IMG/VR virus record: IMGVR_UViG_3300017613_001618
Span: 1 to 5,707 of that record
DNA from: a virus
Reading direction: 5' to 3' (one strand)
DNA: 5,707 nucleotides
Below are positions 122 through 5,707 of this stretch, piece by piece (positions within the stretch are counted from its first letter, which is position 1; each line of letters opens with the position of its first letter). The notes beneath the pieces are model-generated. The model saw nothing but the letters and a program-made list of their open reading frames with translations. It had not been told where the DNA came from and did no database searches. Both the position numbers and the translations under genes were made by a program.

Positions 122-736
122 TTCACAGTCGGAGAGTACGGTGGTCAAGGAGATCGCCCTCATTACCATATTGTTATGTATAATATTCCTAATGATTACA
201 TTGATACCAACAATTTAACAGGTAAACTATTCTCAGAGACATTAGAAAAAATATGGAACAAAGGCATCATAGATATAGACGAGGTAGCAAGGGGTTCGGC
301 ACACTACATGACAAAACATCACTTATTTCCTTATACGGAAATATGGTTAGAGGACACAGACCGTCAAAAGCCATTCGCAATAATGTCAAAAAAACCCGGA
401 TTAGGCTTAAACTGGATAGATGACAAAATTACTAATTATATTAAAAATTCTAAAAATAGCTATGCAACTCTTAAGGATGGCTCTAAAATCCCAATCGGTA
501 GATACCTCAAAGAAAAGGTCAGAGAAAACCTCAATCAAGAAGAGATATTCAATATCAAAGAGCAATCTCAAAAATATATTGCACAGCAAGAGAAAACAGA
601 ATGGGAATTCTTCGTTAGAGAAGCTCAGGGAGATATCTGGGAGGCTCACAAAAATCTCGGAATTGCACAAGCAGAATTCACTAGAGCAAATCGCAAAAAA
701 GCTATAAGACAACTTAAAAGAAACAACAAATTATGA
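2..736 (+). CDS. VP4: Replication initiator protein (VP4/gpA-like), C-terminal part; same gene as 5339..5707 (total 327 aa on the 5586-nt circle)
   Basis: The frame is open from base 2 (frame 2, continuous with 5339..5707 after subtracting 5586). HUH motif II, PHYHIVMYN, has H-Y-H at 161-169. Motif III, SAHYMTKHH, has the candidate catalytic Tyr at 305-307. The stop is TGA 734-736, overlapping the VP1 start (ATGA). The track ORF 176..736 is only the portion after an internal Met. Confidence 0.9.
   Translation, partial: QQFTKALRQKIYRDNVTVKENRERWLKEGVTGKWSPKYRYFTVGEYGGQGDRPHYHIVMYNIPNDYIDTNNLTGKLFSETLEKIWNKGIIDIDEVARGSAHYMTKHHLFPYTEIWLEDTDRQKPFAIMSKKPGLGLNWIDDKITNYIKNSKNSYATLKDGSKIPIGRYLKEKVRENLNQEEIFNIKEQSQKYIAQQEKTEWEFFVREAQGDIWEAHKNLGIAQAEFTRANRKKAIRQLKRNNKL
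420..707 (+). CDS. Candidate overprinted ORF (95 aa) embedded in the Rep C-terminal region in an alternative frame; hypothetical
   Basis: This is an uninterrupted 95-codon ORF on the coding strand inside Rep. It has a hydrophobic/amphipathic N-terminus (MTKLLIILKILKIAMQLLRMAL) followed by a Lys/Ser-rich basic tail. Microviruses are known for nested genes, but A-rich sequence can also give Lys-rich open frames by chance. I saw no RBS. Confidence 0.2.
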   Translation: MTKLLIILKILKIAMQLLRMALKSQSVDTSKKRSEKTSIKKRYSISKSNLKNILHSKRKQNGNSSLEKLREISGRLTKISELHKQNSLEQIAKKL

Positions 737-2394
737 AAAATGTAATGTTCAGAGAATCACCAGTACCTAGTCCAGGAAAAGGTGCGTTCGATTTATCAAA
801 CGAGGTAGACTTCACAGCACGTATAGGACAATTATTACCAGTTATGTGGCATGAGGTAGTACCGGGAGACAGCTTTCAATTAAGGCACAATATGATTATA
901 AAGTTAGCTCCAATGTTAGCTCCAGTATTTCATAGGTTAAATGCTTATGTACATGATTATTTCGTACCATATAGGTTATTAATGAATCCAATAGGTACAT
1001 CATATGCAGGATGGGAGGATTATATAACAGGAGATGTAGATTCGTTTTATGCAAACGAGGAATTACCATATGTTACAATTAACGATACAAATAAACAGTA
1101 TTTCGATGATATATCGTTATCAGCATATTTAGGACTCCCAATTATAGATTCCGGAACAACAGTATCACAAGATGTAGATATTAATGTATTACCGTTCTTC
1201 GCATATCATCTAATATACAATGAATATTACAGAGACGAAAATTTATGCGGAGCAGTATGTAATAAGCATGCAGGAGGTTCAACAGGAATAGATTTAGTAG
1301 GTGGAGACCATAATGTGGGTATATCGGCAATATGTTTAGAGAGTCCATATCATAGAGCTTATGAAAAGGATTATCTCAGAGGAGCCTTACCAACAGCTTA
1401 CACAGGAGCAGCTTCAGATGTAGAGTTAGATTTGGATGCACCGGATACATTTTATACAAAAGGTCAAGCCACAGGAGCACTTGTAACTGGAGCACCTACA
1501 GCAATGGATATAGACGCTAGTGGTAGAATAGAAATATCTGGAGGAAGTCGTGTTACACTTGATGGCAGTAGTGCAACAAGATTGCCGAGTTCATTAGCAA
1601 CAATAGAAGCAATGGAGTTACGTAGAATGATGGCAGTTACAAGATGGTTAGAAGCAGAGAGAAGAGGAGGAACAAGATATATAGAAATGTTATTAGGAGT
1701 ATGGGGTGTAATAGGAGATAATGCAGAGCTTCAAATTCCACAATACATAGGTGGAGGAAAACAGCCAGTACAGATATCATCAGTATTAAACCAATCTCAG
1801 GTATTAGATCCAACAGCAGGTGTAAACGATGGAGTAGGAGGAGCAGTAGTATCAGTTGATCCACAATCATTAGAAACAGGTAGAGCAATAGCATCAGGAT
1901 CATCAAAACAATCAAGGTTCTATGCAAAAGAACATGGTATTATTATGTCTATATTATCAGTATTACCACGTACAAAGTATGGAGGAGCACAGTTAGAAAG
2001 GTTCTGGCGTAAAGCAGACAGAGAAGATTTCTTCGTACCACAGTTACAAAATATAGGAGATCAATCAATATTACAATCAGAGGCCGGTTATGATGCTACA
2101 GGTACAGATATGGACGATGTATTCGGGTACGCACCAAGATGGTCAGAGTATAAATTCAAAAATTCATATGTAGCAGGATATTTTACAAACTCATTAGATT
2201 ACTGGCATATGGCCACAATAGGAGATACAGCTGGAGCAGGCCCATTATTAAATCAATCATTCATAGAGTGCAACGATCAGGACGACGAAATAACAAGAAT
2301 ATTCGCAAATGAAGTAGGAGAGCAAATATATTGCTTCATTCACAATGACGTAAGAGCAATTAGACCAATGTTCGTACACGATATACCAAAATAA
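733..2394 (+). CDS. VP1: Major capsid protein (Microviridae VP1/gpF family), 553 aa
   Basis: Family-typical blocks recalled from gokushovirus VP1 are present. They include FDLSNE...GQLLPVMWHEVVPGDSF near the N-terminus and LPFFAYHLIYNEYYRDENL. Also present are IEAMELRRMMAVTRWLEAERRGGTRYIEMLLGVWGV...LQIPQYIGGG, EHGIIMSILSVLPRTKY and YAPRWSEYKF. The start overlaps the Rep stop (ATGA at 733-736). Confidence 0.93.
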   Translation: MKNVMFRESPVPSPGKGAFDLSNEVDFTARIGQLLPVMWHEVVPGDSFQLRHNMIIKLAPMLAPVFHRLNAYVHDYFVPYRLLMNPIGTSYAGWEDYITGDVDSFYANEELPYVTINDTNKQYFDDISLSAYLGLPIIDSGTTVSQDVDINVLPFFAYHLIYNEYYRDENLCGAVCNKHAGGSTGIDLVGGDHNVGISAICLESPYHRAYEKDYLRGALPTAYTGAASDVELDLDAPDTFYTKGQATGALVTGAPTAMDIDASGRIEISGGSRVTLDGSSATRLPSSLATIEAMELRRMMAVTRWLEAERRGGTRYIEMLLGVWGVIGDNAELQIPQYIGGGKQPVQISSVLNQSQVLDPTAGVNDGVGGAVVSVDPQSLETGRAIASGSSKQSRFYAKEHGIIMSILSVLPRTKYGGAQLERFWRKADREDFFVPQLQNIGDQSILQSEAGYDATGTDMDDVFGYAPRWSEYKFKNSYVAGYFTNSLDYWHMATIGDTAGAGPLLNQSFIECNDQDDEITRIFANEVGEQIYCFIHNDVRAIRPMFVHDIPK

Positions 2395-2400
2395 AAAACC

Positions 2401-2595
2401 ATGATAGTATACAGAAATCATCAAAATTACCCAACAGATAGGCTAAAGGTCAATCATGTAGAGACACGTAAAAATCCAGAGAAATATGGATATACAGAGG
2501 ATTCAGTAAAAATTCAGACTATACCGGGACAATCTCAATCAGTTAAAGAAATACTAGAAAGAAATAAAAAGGGACGACCAATCATTCAAGAGTAA
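2401..2595 (+). CDS. Hypothetical 64-aa protein; possibly the N-terminal portion of a scaffold (VP3-like) protein
   Basis: The ORF starts 6 nt after the VP1 stop and has core-like A-rich composition. The segment TIPGQSQSVKEILERNKKGRPI resembles, from memory only, a conserved motif near the N-terminus of internal scaffolding proteins of non-phiX microviruses. The ORF ends exactly where the composition changes. Confidence 0.5.
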   Translation: MIVYRNHQNYPTDRLKVNHVETRKNPEKYGYTEDSVKIQTIPGQSQSVKEILERNKKGRPIIQE

Positions 2596-2727
2596 ATGAG
2601 AAGCCTAGGAGATGCATTGTTATGGCAATGTAGTGCATATGGCATGAGTAAGAGACAAGAAAGATTAGTTAGATTTTACGTTAAAGGAAGGAGCGTAGGA
2701 AATAAAAAGCGACATGAAACACAATAG
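2596..2727 (+). CDS. Possible 43-aa ORF, or a relic of a helix-turn-helix gene
   Basis: My own translation is MRSLGDALLWQCSAYGMSKRQERLVRFYVKGRSVGNKKRHETQ*. The ATG abuts the preceding TAA (TAAATG, 2593-2598). MSKRQERLVRFYVKGRS loosely resembles the first half of LuxR/sigma-region-4 type HTH domains, or the N-termini of small terminase subunits, but the recognition helix is missing. It may be non-coding. Confidence 0.2.
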   Translation: MRSLGDALLWQCSAYGMSKRQERLVRFYVKGRSVGNKKRHETQ

Positions 2728-2887
2728 ATGCAGCACATGCGGCTTTGCCGCAGGACACTTCAGAGAGGACCTATTCACAGGATTAATGTTATGTGATGAG
2801 TGCTGGATAAGAAAAAAACATTCTTTCTTTCCAAAACGCAGTCGCATAGCAACATCCAACACTTCTAGTTCGGAACGGCATGGTTAG
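2714..2887 (+). CDS. Small zinc-ribbon protein (57 aa), hypothetical
   Basis: My own translation is MKHNRCSTCGFAAGHFREDLFTGLMLCDECWIRKKHSFFPKRSRIATSNTSSSERHG*. It is below the cutoff of the ORF track. It has two CxxC pairs (C6/C9 and C27/C30) 17 residues apart, followed by a basic tail. It ends 37 nt before the hairpin at 2925-2946. No well-spaced SD is present: AAGGAGC lies about 20 nt upstream. Confidence 0.5.
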   Translation: MKHNRCSTCGFAAGHFREDLFTGLMLCDECWIRKKHSFFPKRSRIATSNTSSSERHG

Positions 2888-2920
2888 GACAGGCCCTGGC
2901 CTCAGTAGCAGGACGATCAT

Positions 2921-2946
2921 AAAAAAAGGCCCCTCACGGGGCCTTT
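2921..2946 (-). terminator. Intrinsic (rho-independent) terminator, strongest in the - orientation; may act bidirectionally between convergent units
   Basis: The stem is AAAGGCCCC (2925-2933) paired with GGGGCCTTT (2938-2946), with loop TCAC. Read on the - strand, the GC stem is followed by seven T (complement of A 2921-2927). It begins 5 nt after the stop of the - strand ORF 2952..3134. On the + strand only TTTAT follows. Confidence 0.8.
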
Positions 2947-2951
2947 ATCAT

Positions 2952-3134
2952 TCAGAAGGGCATATTCAGTTCAAAGTCATCCACAACGCCAGAGCTATAG
3001 TGGATAGAGACGCGAGTAACAGCAGCACGTCTTTCACAGTTATGTGGAACAGCCAAATTCGCGATCTCTTCCTCACATCGCTGCGTACGTCGTAGGAGTT
3101 CTTCCCACTCCCAATGTTCAACTTTCTTCCGCAT
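2952..3134 (-). CDS. Hypothetical 60-aa protein, second gene of the antisense operon
   Basis: The ATG (3134-3132) lies 1 nt after the TGA of the upstream - strand ORF (TGAgATG). GGAGG (complement of 3141-3145) lies 6 nt upstream of the ATG. A terminator follows immediately. I recognise no family for the product MRKKVEHWEWEELLRRTQRCEEEIANLAVPHNCERRAAVTRVSIHYSSGVVDDFELNMPF. Confidence 0.55.
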   Translation of the reverse strand: MRKKVEHWEWEELLRRTQRCEEEIANLAVPHNCERRAAVTRVSIHYSSGVVDDFELNMPF

Positions 3135-3135
3135 C

Positions 3136-3495
3136 TCATCCCTCCGGAATTATATTACGGTCATCATCAAGAGTAAAGCGGCCATAATCAGAACAAGGAA
3201 ATTCAGGCAAAATGGCCAATATATCATCTTCAACTTCACCAGAGGTAACACGCTTAAGCCCGTAATTCATAAAAGGGATGAGAGTACAGAGAGCATCTTC
3301 CTTATTAATATGGAACTCAAGCTTAATAAAGAGAGGAAGGTCATCAGCCGGATCAATGCTTTGACATAGATCATCAGCGGTACAACGTACAAGCTCCAGA
3401 TCAAATTCCAAGCCAAGATCCGGCACAGACCTCTCAAACTCATCATAAAGCTTACGTTCCTTACTAGACAGATTAATCAAATCAAATCTTTCCAT
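3136..3495 (-). CDS. Hypothetical strongly acidic 119-aa protein, first gene of the antisense operon
   Basis: This is the longest ORF in the island and the only long - strand ORF in the window that is not a Leu/Phe-rich antisense shadow. By hand count it has 28 Asp/Glu against 12 Lys/Arg. The amino-acid composition is balanced and protein-like. No SD is present, and the ATG sits very close to promoter-like hexamers. I recognise no family. Confidence 0.7.
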   Translation of the reverse strand: MERFDLINLSSKERKLYDEFERSVPDLGLEFDLELVRCTADDLCQSIDPADDLPLFIKLEFHINKEDALCTLIPFMNYGLKRVTSGEVEDDILAILPEFPCSDYGRFTLDDDRNIIPEG

Positions 3496-3609
3496 AATAC
3501 AGAAATTTAGTTAACGACAACATTGTCAAGCAGATAACAAGCCATTACTCGCCCAAGTCAAGGGTCGCTTTCGCGATTTATATACCCTTTACTTGGAAAA
3601 GAGACAGTA
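3496..3609. promoter_or_regulatory. Divergent intergenic control region between the antisense operon and + strand ORF 3610
   Basis: This 114-nt non-coding gap lies between divergent starts. On the - strand there are two -35-like hexamers, TTGACT (complement of 3556-3561) and TTGACA (complement of 3524-3529). A TAAATT/TAAATTTC element (complement of 3504-3509) lies only about 8 nt before the ATG. Spacings are not canonical for sigma70, so promoter assignment is tentative. Confidence 0.3.
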
Positions 3610-3954
3610 ATGGCTTATATTGCGGAAACAATGAGTCAAATCGCCCAAACATTAAAAGAAACTAACATGACAGAACGAGACGTACGCAAAAGCAAAAATC
3701 AAGAAGAGCAGATAGAAGTTCACTTCACAGACGCAGACTATTCAGACGACTTCAGAGCAGATCCGCTAACAACAATGGATGACATCAAAGAAGAGCGAGA
3801 CGCTATCAATTACAACAAGCAGCAAAGAGCCAATCAAGCGAGCGCGGAGGCAGAGGCCAAGGCCAAGGCCGAGCAAGAAGAGAAGGAAAAGGAGCTAGAG
3901 CGACTAAGAGAATTCGAAAGAAATAATACTCAAAAACCGTTAGGACAACAATAA
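3610..3954 (+). CDS. Hypothetical acidic 114-aa protein with a charged low-complexity/coiled-coil tail; possibly scaffold-related
   Basis: The ORF is on the core coding strand. It has an acidic block, HFTDADYSDDFRADPLTTMDDIKEERD, then ASAEAEAKAKAEQEEKEKELERLREFER (nt 3838-3921). Ala and Arg codons are more GC-rich than in the core genes. Confidence 0.6.
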   Translation: MAYIAETMSQIAQTLKETNMTERDVRKSKNQEEQIEVHFTDADYSDDFRADPLTTMDDIKEERDAINYNKQQRANQASAEAEAKAKAEQEEKEKELERLREFERNNTQKPLGQQ

Positions 3955-3970
3955 AAAAATAAAGGTCATC

Positions 3971-4015
3971 AGCACCATTCACTTGTCTTAATGGTGCTAA
4001 GTGACACTGTCACTT
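3971..4015. other. Two adjacent perfect stem-loops in the intergenic region upstream of VP2
   Basis: Hairpin 1 pairs AGCACCATT (3971-3979) with AATGGTGCT (3990-3998) around a 10-nt loop. Hairpin 2 pairs AAGTGAC (3999-4005) with GTCACTT (4009-4015) around a 3-nt loop and abuts hairpin 1 directly. No T-tract follows on the + strand, so this is not a canonical terminator. Confidence 0.6.
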
Positions 4016-4029
4016 AAAATCAAACAGTT

Positions 4030-4860
4030 ATGGCAATAGGACCAACACATCCACTAGCAAACGCAGCAAAAGGAGCAGCAGCAGGATCATTATTAGGACC
4101 AATCGGCACAGCAGTAGGAGCAGGAGCAAGTATATTAGGATCAGCCTTACAACGCTCATGGCAAAAAAAAATGTGGGATAGACAAAATAGATACAATGCC
4201 CCATCAGCACAAGTAGGACGTTATAGAGACGCAGGTATAAATCCAAATATGGTTATAGGCGGCGGCGGAACTTCAGCCGGTAACGCCGGACCAGTAGGAT
4301 CATATCAAAAAGGAGAAATAGGAGACATAGGAGCCTCCTTCACAAACCAAATGGCTCAATATCAAAACATTAGAAATCAAAAACAGCAGGTAGAGAACAT
4401 GAAATCAGATAAAAATCTGGTAGATAAAAAGGCAATAACAGAAACAGTAAGAGCATTATCAATAGGCGCACAGGCAAATTTATCAAAAGGTCAGTTAAAC
4501 AGGTTAAATAAATTACTCCCCGCAGAAGTATCAAAATACCAATCAGACGCAGAATATGCATCAGATCGTATAGGCTTATTAGAGATTCAAAAAAGGCTAA
4601 CAGAGGGTAAAGTCACAGGACAGACACTATCAAATACATTCCAAACTTTCAAGAACGAGTTATGGGAAGATAATAAAATGACTATGTCAGATGCAACATG
4701 GTTACGTATGTTCACAGGATTCCTAAAAGAAGCAGGAATAAGCGATAAATTACCACAGGTAAAACAATGGATAGAGGAACAAACAAATAAACTTCAAAAT
4801 CTAGGTCAGAACAGACCAGGAGTTAAAAATGGTAAAAATTGGCGAGATCGCCGTAATTAA
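4030..4860 (+). CDS. VP2: Minor capsid / DNA pilot protein (Microviridae VP2-like), 276 aa
   Basis: The N-terminus is Gly/Ala-rich (GAAAGSLLGPIGTAVGAGASILGSAL). It is followed by the block WDRQNRYNAPSAQVGRYRDAGINPNMVIGGG, which matches the YN-P--Q--R---AG-NP motif I recall from gokushovirus VP2 proteins. The C-terminal half is helical and Gln/Lys-rich. Its position after VP1 is typical. Confidence 0.85.
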   Translation: MAIGPTHPLANAAKGAAAGSLLGPIGTAVGAGASILGSALQRSWQKKMWDRQNRYNAPSAQVGRYRDAGINPNMVIGGGGTSAGNAGPVGSYQKGEIGDIGASFTNQMAQYQNIRNQKQQVENMKSDKNLVDKKAITETVRALSIGAQANLSKGQLNRLNKLLPAEVSKYQSDAEYASDRIGLLEIQKRLTEGKVTGQTLSNTFQTFKNELWEDNKMTMSDATWLRMFTGFLKEAGISDKLPQVKQWIEEQTNKLQNLGQNRPGVKNGKNWRDRRN

Positions 4861-5338: not shown

Positions 5339-5707
5339 ATGAAATGCGAAAATCCAATCTGGATAGAAGTACACCCAGTAACAAAAGAGCATGTAGGATC
5401 ATATGTTCCTTGTTCGAGATGTTATTCATGTATACAGACAAAGAGATCAGTTTGGACGTTTCGTTTGTTAATGGAGTTAAGGGTAGCGGAGTCAGCATAC
5501 TTCGTTACTCTTACTTACGACCCTCAATCAGTACCATATATAACAGAACAAGGTATAATATACGAGAATCTAGATAAATCACATGTACAGCAATTCACAA
5601 AGGCGTTAAGGCAAAAAATATACAGAGACAATGTTACAGTTAAGGAAAACAGGGAAAGGTGGCTCAAGGAAGGAGTCACAGGAAAATGGTCACCAAAATA
5701 CCGTTAC
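5339..5707 (+). CDS. VP4: Replication initiator protein (HUH rolling-circle endonuclease, microvirus VP4/gpA-like), N-terminal part; runs off the window end and continues at base 2 on the circle
   Basis: My own translation from ATG 5339 is MKCENPIWIEVHPVTKEHVGSYVPCSRCYSCIQTKRSVWTFRLLMELRVAESAYFVTLTYDPQS... It has an N-terminal Cys cluster (C3, C25, C28, C31). HUH motif I, FVTLTYD, lies at 5501-5521. There is no stop to the end of the window. The ATG directly abuts the TAA of the preceding ORF (TAAATG, 5336-5341). The ORF track missed it because it is open-ended. Confidence 0.9.
   Translation, partial: MKCENPIWIEVHPVTKEHVGSYVPCSRCYSCIQTKRSVWTFRLLMELRVAESAYFVTLTYDPQSVPYITEQGIIYENLDKSHVQQFTKALRQKIYRDNVTVKENRERWLKEGVTGKWSPKYRY
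5587..5707. repeat. Terminal direct repeat, copy 2 (identical to 1-121)
   Basis: Same 121-nt string as 1-121. The implied unit genome length is 5586 nt, which fits the Microviridae size range. Confidence 0.95.

Follow-up and report, generated by a model that had tools for sequence, protein, structure and literature searches.

The most unexpected result of this analysis is the presence, in a microvirus, of an antisense cargo slot associated with a hairpin. Microviruses, which rank among the commonest phages of gut and environmental viromes, are treated as being nearly without accessory genes. In the genome studied here, the slot is occupied by two small open reading frames, called A119 and B60 below, which are best read as a self-contained, moron-like accessory cassette placed on the strand opposite to that of all the core genes. 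A119 may provide a concrete candidate for the means by which a 5-kb ssDNA phage counters host defences, and the hairpin, a new portable DNA motif, might serve as an ssDNA promoter, a priming site, an operator or regulator, or in some other role.

The window (the whole stretch of DNA analyzed, 5,707 nt in length) shows an exact terminal redundancy of 121 nt, positions 1–121 being identical to positions 5587–5707, which means that the contig closes into a circle of 5586 nt. This is a complete circular Microviridae genome: a Phage_F capsid protein, a Rep protein, and a pilot protein are encoded, and the size lies in the range of about 4.5–6 kb. The core genes coding for Rep, VP1, and the pilot protein are all located on the + strand (Table 1). 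The genes of microviruses are said to all face one way, and reverse-strand calls have been removed in the course of curation (PMC9239249), as a result of which terminator-bounded antisense cargo genes may have been systematically missed. The antisense cassette is an exception to this one-direction rule, since A119 and B60 lie on the complementary strand, as do the antisense ORFs present in the relatives L029 and L031. Nothing relevant was found in the literature on ambisense or antisense microvirus genes or on the sequence of the hairpin motif. The core genes VP1 (733), o64 (2401), VP2 (4030), and o94 (4869) have A-rich leaders with no Shine-Dalgarno site, unlike B60, which has a strong GGAGGG site; these leaders, along with the TAnnTTTG-like boxes observed close to the L029 and Pedobacter hairpins, hint at a Bacteroidota-type host.

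Table 1. Positions of the genes, signals, and hairpin copies identified in the window and in other replicons.
Feature	Replicon	Position	Strand	Remarks
Major capsid protein VP1 (Phage_F)	Window	733–2394	+	Pfam 2.7e-61; PHROG 514, 1.8e-107
Extra DNA, ~1 kb	Window	2596–3609	.	Relative to L008, the closest full-length relative
o57, zinc-ribbon (CxxC...CxxC) gene	Window	2714–2887	+	Convergent with the antisense unit
Intrinsic terminator (predicted)	Window	2925–2946	.	9 bp stem, 6 G-C, loop 4; minus-strand T-run after, A-run before
B60, 60-aa ORF	Window	2952–3134	-	ATG 1 nt after the A119 stop
A119, acidic ORF	Window	3136–3495	-	ATG start, 119 aa, strongly acidic
GGAGGG, Shine-Dalgarno-like site	Window	3140–3145	-	5 nt upstream of the B60 ATG, within the last A119 codons
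Promoter-like boxes of the antisense unit	Window	3502–3561	-	Read by eye, resemblance to consensus
Long imperfect hairpin, ~43 bp	Window	3516–3637	+	Between A119 and the VP3-like gene
Hairpin apex motif	Window	3557–3592	+	GTCAAGGG, GC mini-hairpin, TTTATATA bulge, then CCCTTGAC
DNA pilot protein	Window	4030–4860	+	PHROG 8689
Rep, replication initiator	Window	5339 to 736	+	Wraps the contig ends; PHROG 942
o57 homolog	L029	4105–4260		Sequence comparison
o57 homolog	L030	4297–4476		Sequence comparison
A119 homolog	L029	4479–4889	-	136-aa ORF, matching slot and orientation; found by synteny
Antisense ORF	L031	4308–4523	-	58–71 aa, acidic, unrelated to A119
Hairpin copy	L029	4970–5034		Apex conserved
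Hairpin copy, diverged	L031	4535–4596		42.7 bits
Hairpin copy	L040	132–198		Distant microvirus
Hairpin copy	L034	6230–6294	-	
Hairpin copy	L035	7721–7786		
Hairpin copy	L036	2083–2148	-	
Hairpin copy	L037	4415–4479		
Hairpin copy	pF1947 (NC_007206.1)	923–957		Conjugative Haemophilus plasmid

The initial annotation described A119 as a strongly acidic protein with 28 Asp/Glu as against 12 Lys/Arg, a net charge of about -16, and acidic residues occurring in clusters, and its position and all these features were confirmed by translating the ORF and counting its residues. The product contains 16 Asp and 12 Glu (about 24% of the residues) versus 5 Lys and 7 Arg, which amounts to a net charge of -16 and a pI of 4.17, and the acidic clusters ADDLCQSIDPADD, GEVEDD, and TLDDDR are all present in the translation. 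Per residue, it is the most acidic product encoded by the genome. It shows neither a transmembrane segment nor any hydrophobic stretch compatible with a signal peptide or a membrane span, and is predicted to be soluble.

A119 is the longest ORF of the 1-kb insert in which it lies: dinucleotide shuffles gave a mean of 64 ± 20 codons, and only 1.8% of them reached 119. Its codon periodicity is of the coding type (GC1 0.57 > GC2 = GC3 0.32; G1 0.34 vs. 0.37 in the case of VP1). The G-rich first codon position characteristic of coding frames was observed in both A119 and B60, as in VP1, and was not detected in the small + strand ORFs of the insert, including o71, which lies opposite B60; between 3188 and 3609, opposite most of A119, there is no + strand ORF of at least 30 aa. 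A119 and B60 were both annotated by an independent gene caller on a second (JGI) contig from the same sample, which is identical to the window over positions 1634–4044 and covers both insert junctions. The length of the ORF, its periodicity, the Shine-Dalgarno coupling and terminator described below, the independent gene calls, and the existence of a homolog in L029, which is the most important of these five lines of evidence, together indicate that A119 is a genuine protein-coding gene.

The insert was delimited by making a comparison with L008 (VP1 53%), in which the homologs of the flanking genes show 61% and 39% identity: the gap between these genes amounts to 1014 nt in the window vs. 56 nt in L008. 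The GC content of the insert is 0.44–0.47 vs. about 0.35 elsewhere in the genome, and its GC skew is reversed. At its left edge, a 34-nt direct repeat (74% identity) is present at 2542–2575, at the 3' end of o64, and at 2680–2713, before o57; this repeat may be a remnant of the recombination event that brought the insert. No evidence was obtained that the insert might have originated from an IS or a MITE: no transposon-like ends or target duplications were detected, and the other repeats were short and at chance level. In the L008 genome, the Rep gene shows an in-frame TAA (GEY*GPQ) at about 4590–4600, where the window reads GEYGGQG; this codon could be a sequencing error or correspond to a pseudogene or to recoding.

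The insert also carries the zinc-ribbon gene o57, which has conserved counterparts in both L029 (53% identity, E 4e-19) and L030, its position differing among the three genomes. On L030, no gene was called at the site of the homolog. The L029 and L030 relatives match the Lar profile (PF14354) with an E-value of about 0.008 and scores of 16.8–16.9 bits vs. a gathering cut-off of 28.6, other zinc-ribbon families, including DUF4428, score them about equally well, and the window's own o57 gave no Lar match in Pfam. The restriction alleviation protein Lar is, like o57, a small CxxC...CxxC protein of a mobile element, but the Lar scores of the o57 family stay well under the cut-off and were obtained with only two of its three members, namely the relatives.

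The 60-aa neighbor attributed to the acidic ORF in the initial annotation is also real in the sequence. Preceded by its Shine-Dalgarno-like site, B60 is predicted to be translationally coupled to A119. The B60 product is mildly acidic (pI 5.9), and its structural model (pLDDT 72), which consists of one helix and a beta-hairpin, gave no Foldseek match; the protein search returned only B60 itself, L029 has no counterpart, and the ORF is not conserved in the relatives. The terminator, which is located a few bases past B60 and faces the convergent + strand gene o57, is predicted to be strong and bidirectional, and equivalent terminators are present in L029 and L031. On the other side of the unit, the candidate promoter boxes are TTGACT (3561–3556), CTTGACA (3530–3524), and TAAATTTC (3509–3502), the last of which ends 6 nt before the A119 ATG. 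These putative promoter elements are weak matches to a consensus which may not be that of the host, and no site upstream of A119 was listed by a generic sigma-70 scan.

In tailed temperate phages, morons are autonomous promoter-gene-terminator cassettes. Like them, the A119 cassette is extra DNA of deviant composition which some close relatives have and others lack, and it is flanked by promoter-like boxes on one side and an intrinsic terminator on the other, which would allow it to be transcribed separately; it differs from them in that it is carried by a 5.6-kb ssDNA microvirus, where it is complementary to all the other genes. A119 is accessory: it is antisense, lies in compositionally distinct DNA, and is present in only some of the relatives. 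In L031, the antisense ORF runs up to a bidirectional terminator located immediately after VP1, and directly upstream of this ORF (in the minus-strand sense) there is a diverged hairpin copy; the start context CTAAATTTyNNTATTATG, which includes the TAAATTTC box, is common to A119 and this ORF. The L031 ORF was rejected as a relative of A119 (hhalign probability 0.1%). The terminator-cargo-hairpin layout observed in the window, in L029, and in L031 means that the same architecture recurs three times with different cargo.

About 35 VP1 relatives showing 44–61% identity, carried mostly by contigs of 4.6–5.1 kb, were listed, and ten of them were opened. In L029, a related microvirus from a different sample with a VP1 54% identical to that of the window, the ORF in the matching slot shows 27% identity with A119 over 102 residues (pairwise E 1e-5), and the motifs E[FY]..S.PD.GL[DE][FY], T.[IL]PF...GL, and VED are common to the two proteins. 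The aligned core of the L029 homolog has a net charge of -17 and a pI of 4.17, and the fact that the acidity has been kept at 27% identity is what would be expected if the charge matters. The other nine relatives examined (L008, L027, L028, L030–L033, L038, which is a partial contig, and L039) carry no A119-like gene, and the cassette is therefore present in two of the 11 clade genomes (the window and ten relatives). Judging from this alignment, A119 founds a two-member orphan family, the small size of which makes the conservation statistics thin. The 12.1-kb L028 contig (ERZ26869290 ctg352915) consists of about 2.3 genome copies joined head to tail, which differ slightly from each other; this concatemer is an artefact of assembly or of rolling-circle replication, and not a prophage.

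Neither A119 nor B60 gave any match in Pfam, PHROGs, PADLOC, or NCBIfam. A word search over 5.8 billion clusters returned only A119 and B60 themselves, tblastn searches of phage records yielded nothing for either of them, and a search of IMG/VR with the two-member A119 profile was likewise negative. HMMER searches of 1.84 billion representatives with A119 gave a single non-self match, the 5000-aa adhesin P0002, which contains cadherin-like repeats of about 95 aa (E 1.3e-8). This candidate was rejected: each repeat scores at most 12.3 bits, the E-value being inflated by about 10 near-identical repeats, and hhalign comparison of A119 with the repeat profile gave a probability of 0.18% and an E-value of 0.34. 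The match was found to depend on the order of the residues in a shuffle test. In PDB, phmmer and profile searches with A119 yielded only unrelated proteins, with best E-values of 0.38–1.4, and no DNA mimic. The absence of any resemblance to Ocr or ArdA noted in the initial annotation was borne out by the searches in Pfam, PHROGs, NCBIfam, PADLOC, and PDB. The secondary structure predicted for A119 is of a mixed alpha/beta type, with low confidence. The single-sequence AlphaFold2 model (pLDDT 50, pTM 0.32) is too poor for the spacing of the carboxylates to be judged, and a Foldseek comparison of this low-confidence model with PDB gave a best E-value of 0.8.

As regards the function of A119, the explanation favored here, tentatively and as a possibility falling somewhat short of probable, is that this acidic protein may act as a stoichiometric inhibitor, targeting a nucleic-acid-binding protein from the host or a competitor and serving as an anti-defence or takeover factor. 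A119 would be a soluble alpha/beta protein of about 120 aa which binds and neutralizes a basic nucleic-acid-binding protein belonging to the host or to a competing element, in the same way as acidic decoys; both the class of the target and the inhibitory mechanism are what we infer. Ocr (from T7), ArdA, AcrIIA4, and AcrF2 are acidic DNA-mimic or decoy proteins with anti-restriction or anti-CRISPR activity. Like these proteins, A119 is a small, strongly acidic, and apparently soluble accessory cargo of a mobile element, and the fact that its charge has been kept while its sequence drifted was counted as a further likeness; it differs from Ocr and ArdA in that it shows no sequence or profile similarity to them, the likeness in charge density being based on its composition. 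Acidity alone is weak evidence, since acidic products are common among small phage proteins. Loci involved in counter-defence or in interactions with the host typically have a slot in which small cargo is exchanged, and the presence of different cargo in the same slot (A119 here, the unrelated ORF in L031) was counted in favor of the anti-defence reading, as was the fact that the slot adjoins a conserved zinc-ribbon gene, the relatives of which show weak, sub-threshold Lar-like matches. Accessory methyltransferases contributing to restriction escape are known to occur among the cargo of microviruses (PMC9239249). The proposal made in the initial annotation that A119 might be a DNA mimic or an anti-defence protein thus stands as far as its accessory status, its predicted solubility, and the conservation of its charge in the homolog are concerned, but it finds no echo in any similarity to a solved mimic or to a defence family.

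Another explanation, which seems rather unlikely, is that A119 might be a prophage or carrier-state moron which benefits the lysogen or regulates the phage, for example by ensuring superinfection exclusion against other microviruses or by acting as an anti-repressor or a regulator of replication timing. Being transcribed in the antisense direction, A119 could be expressed at times when the lytic genes of the + strand are switched off, and an antisense, separately terminated unit would suit a lysogeny-expressed or exclusion gene equally well. The autonomy of the unit, which has a terminator of its own and is divergent from or antisense to the core genes, its sporadic occurrence in the clade, the different cargo present in the matching slot, and the proximity of the hairpin motif to integrases and recombinases in bacterial elements all point in the same direction, and superinfection exclusion by hypervariable regions of microviruses has been cited (PMC9239249). 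However, searches of the window revealed neither an integrase nor a dif-like site nor a repressor, no integrated copy of the clade was seen (L028 being a concatemer), and a protein that is acidic and lacks a DNA-binding domain does not qualify as a repressor. That A119 and B60 might be the acidic antitoxin and the toxin of a type II toxin-antitoxin or addiction pair, as also suggested in the initial annotation, is scarcely credible: the layout is certainly there, with two tightly coupled small ORFs, the acidic one upstream, and a common terminator, but the reading is weakened by the fact that B60 is neither toxin-like nor conserved. This 60-aa protein of pI 5.9 has no homolog and, like A119, matched nothing at E ≤ 1 in Pfam, NCBIfam, or PADLOC, the L029 cassette has kept the A119 homolog with no B60 counterpart, so that the pair is not inherited together, and A119 contains no recognizable DNA-binding antitoxin domain. 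It is very unlikely, lastly, that A119 is not functional, that is, that these frames arose by chance in DNA that was acquired horizontally or is structured but non-coding, or that the insert results from faulty assembly. The orphan status of A119 in databases containing billions of proteins, the moderate significance of its length (P about 0.02), and the fact that both of the contigs carrying it come from one sample would fit this explanation, but a homologous ORF with conserved motifs and charge occupies the same slot in an independent sample, A119 shows coding periodicity, the ORFs are framed exactly by the Shine-Dalgarno coupling and the terminator, and both insert junctions lie inside a circularly closed contig and were found again in the second one.

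Folded as DNA, the hairpin next to the A119 cassette has an energy of -26 to -28 kcal/mol (z -4.3 to -6.4), and no other 130-nt window of the genome is as stable; A119 starts 21 nt beyond its base. The 3' part of the apex fits CCCTT(G/T)AC, and the apex carries mirrored -35-like TTGAC boxes. In the right arm, a conserved (T)TGAC box is preceded by an unpaired A/T-rich bulge, TTGGAA-17-TATATT matches at nine of 12 positions, and the -10 elements are weak and variable. The downstream + strand gene o114 (VP3-like) probably starts at Met20 (3667) rather than at 3610, since the homologs in the relatives align only from residue 31 onwards and the L029 gene begins after the hairpin; the first nine codons of o114 as called from 3610 fall in the right arm of the hairpin.

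An exact-pattern scan of bacterial genomes yielded four matches with the apex vs. about 0.01 expected (a rough estimate): one in a Rikenellaceae element integrated at a tRNA and carrying a tyrosine integrase, one in a Pedobacter element adjoining a large serine recombinase, one next to an IS256-family transposase on an Anaerotignum contig, and one on an Oscillospiraceae contig. Further copies were detected by blastn in other GenBank microviruses and on plasmids of Enterocloster, Mucilaginibacter, Pedobacter, and Aliivibrio, and on pF1947 the motif lies upstream of two small ORFs and a resolvase. The motif therefore spans microviruses, plasmids, and integrative elements across the Bacteroidota, Firmicutes, and Proteobacteria. 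The sequences of the outer arms are unrelated between replicons, yet they are complementary within each of them: in a seven-sequence alignment, 84.7% of the cells pair vs. 64% in shuffles and 26–42% when the partner column was slid, compensatory changes are present in 16 of the 27 pairs, and the covariation observed was reached by none of 500 shuffles. Rfam contains no family corresponding to the hairpin or to anything else in the window. The pairing and covariation patterns give good support to the hairpin as a new structured motif carried by mobile elements.

By analogy with plasmids, the hairpin might be an ssDNA promoter or a priming signal on the virion strand, the microvirus counterpart of Frpo, in which case the slot would serve swappable immediate-early counter-defence cargo; this is quite improbable. 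In the Microviridae, the packaged strand is of mRNA sense, so that only antisense genes have the injected strand itself as their template. In the folded hairpin, the right arm would be the non-template strand carrying the TTGAC-type box and the left arm would be the template, and RNA polymerase would be directed straight into A119; the antisense slot would then be the only place where the injected ssDNA could directly give rise to a protein before any double-stranded replicative form has been made. On this reading, the hairpin would also be a counterpart of the minus origins of filamentous phages, which are primed by RNA polymerase. On conjugative plasmids, Frpo is responsible for the early expression of anti-defence, SSB, and PsiB genes from the transferred strand and also primes complementary-strand synthesis (PMC11541004). 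Like the hairpin described here, it is a long, stable hairpin located on the entering strand upstream of a gene templated by that strand, with -35-like and A/T-rich elements, the entering strand being in the present case the virion (+) strand, as can be presumed from the biology of the Microviridae. The ssDNA-promoter reading is consistent with the fact that the motif is carried by a conjugative plasmid and by integrative elements. The two systems differ, however, in that the motif studied here has weak -10-like elements and also occurs with no leftward gene following; in other microviruses, it lies in an intergenic region with no antisense cargo, and in one unverified microvirus record its orientation is reversed, which argues against a promoter of this kind. 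The prediction that the bacterial copies would always precede a leftward gene was rejected, their contexts being heterogeneous. If the reading were true, counter-defence cargo such as A119 would mirror the anti-defence islands present in the leading region of conjugative plasmids.

Two minor observations were made on the surroundings of the hairpin copies. In the record of bajarodmic virus 714 (PQ006936.1), about 760 nt in the region 3296–4252 have been left without annotation. A copy of the hairpin motif falls in this gap, which also overlaps the beginning of a 318-aa Rep-like ORF (CGKCLECRRNR..., HFHGLIF motifs) not labeled as Rep. In the Pedobacter element (L036, 1653–2132, minus strand) and in pF1947 (NC_007206.1, 923–2119), the motif is followed in one and the same orientation by one or two small ORFs, then by a gene coding for a serine recombinase or a resolvase, which suggests the existence of a recurrent motif-recombinase module.
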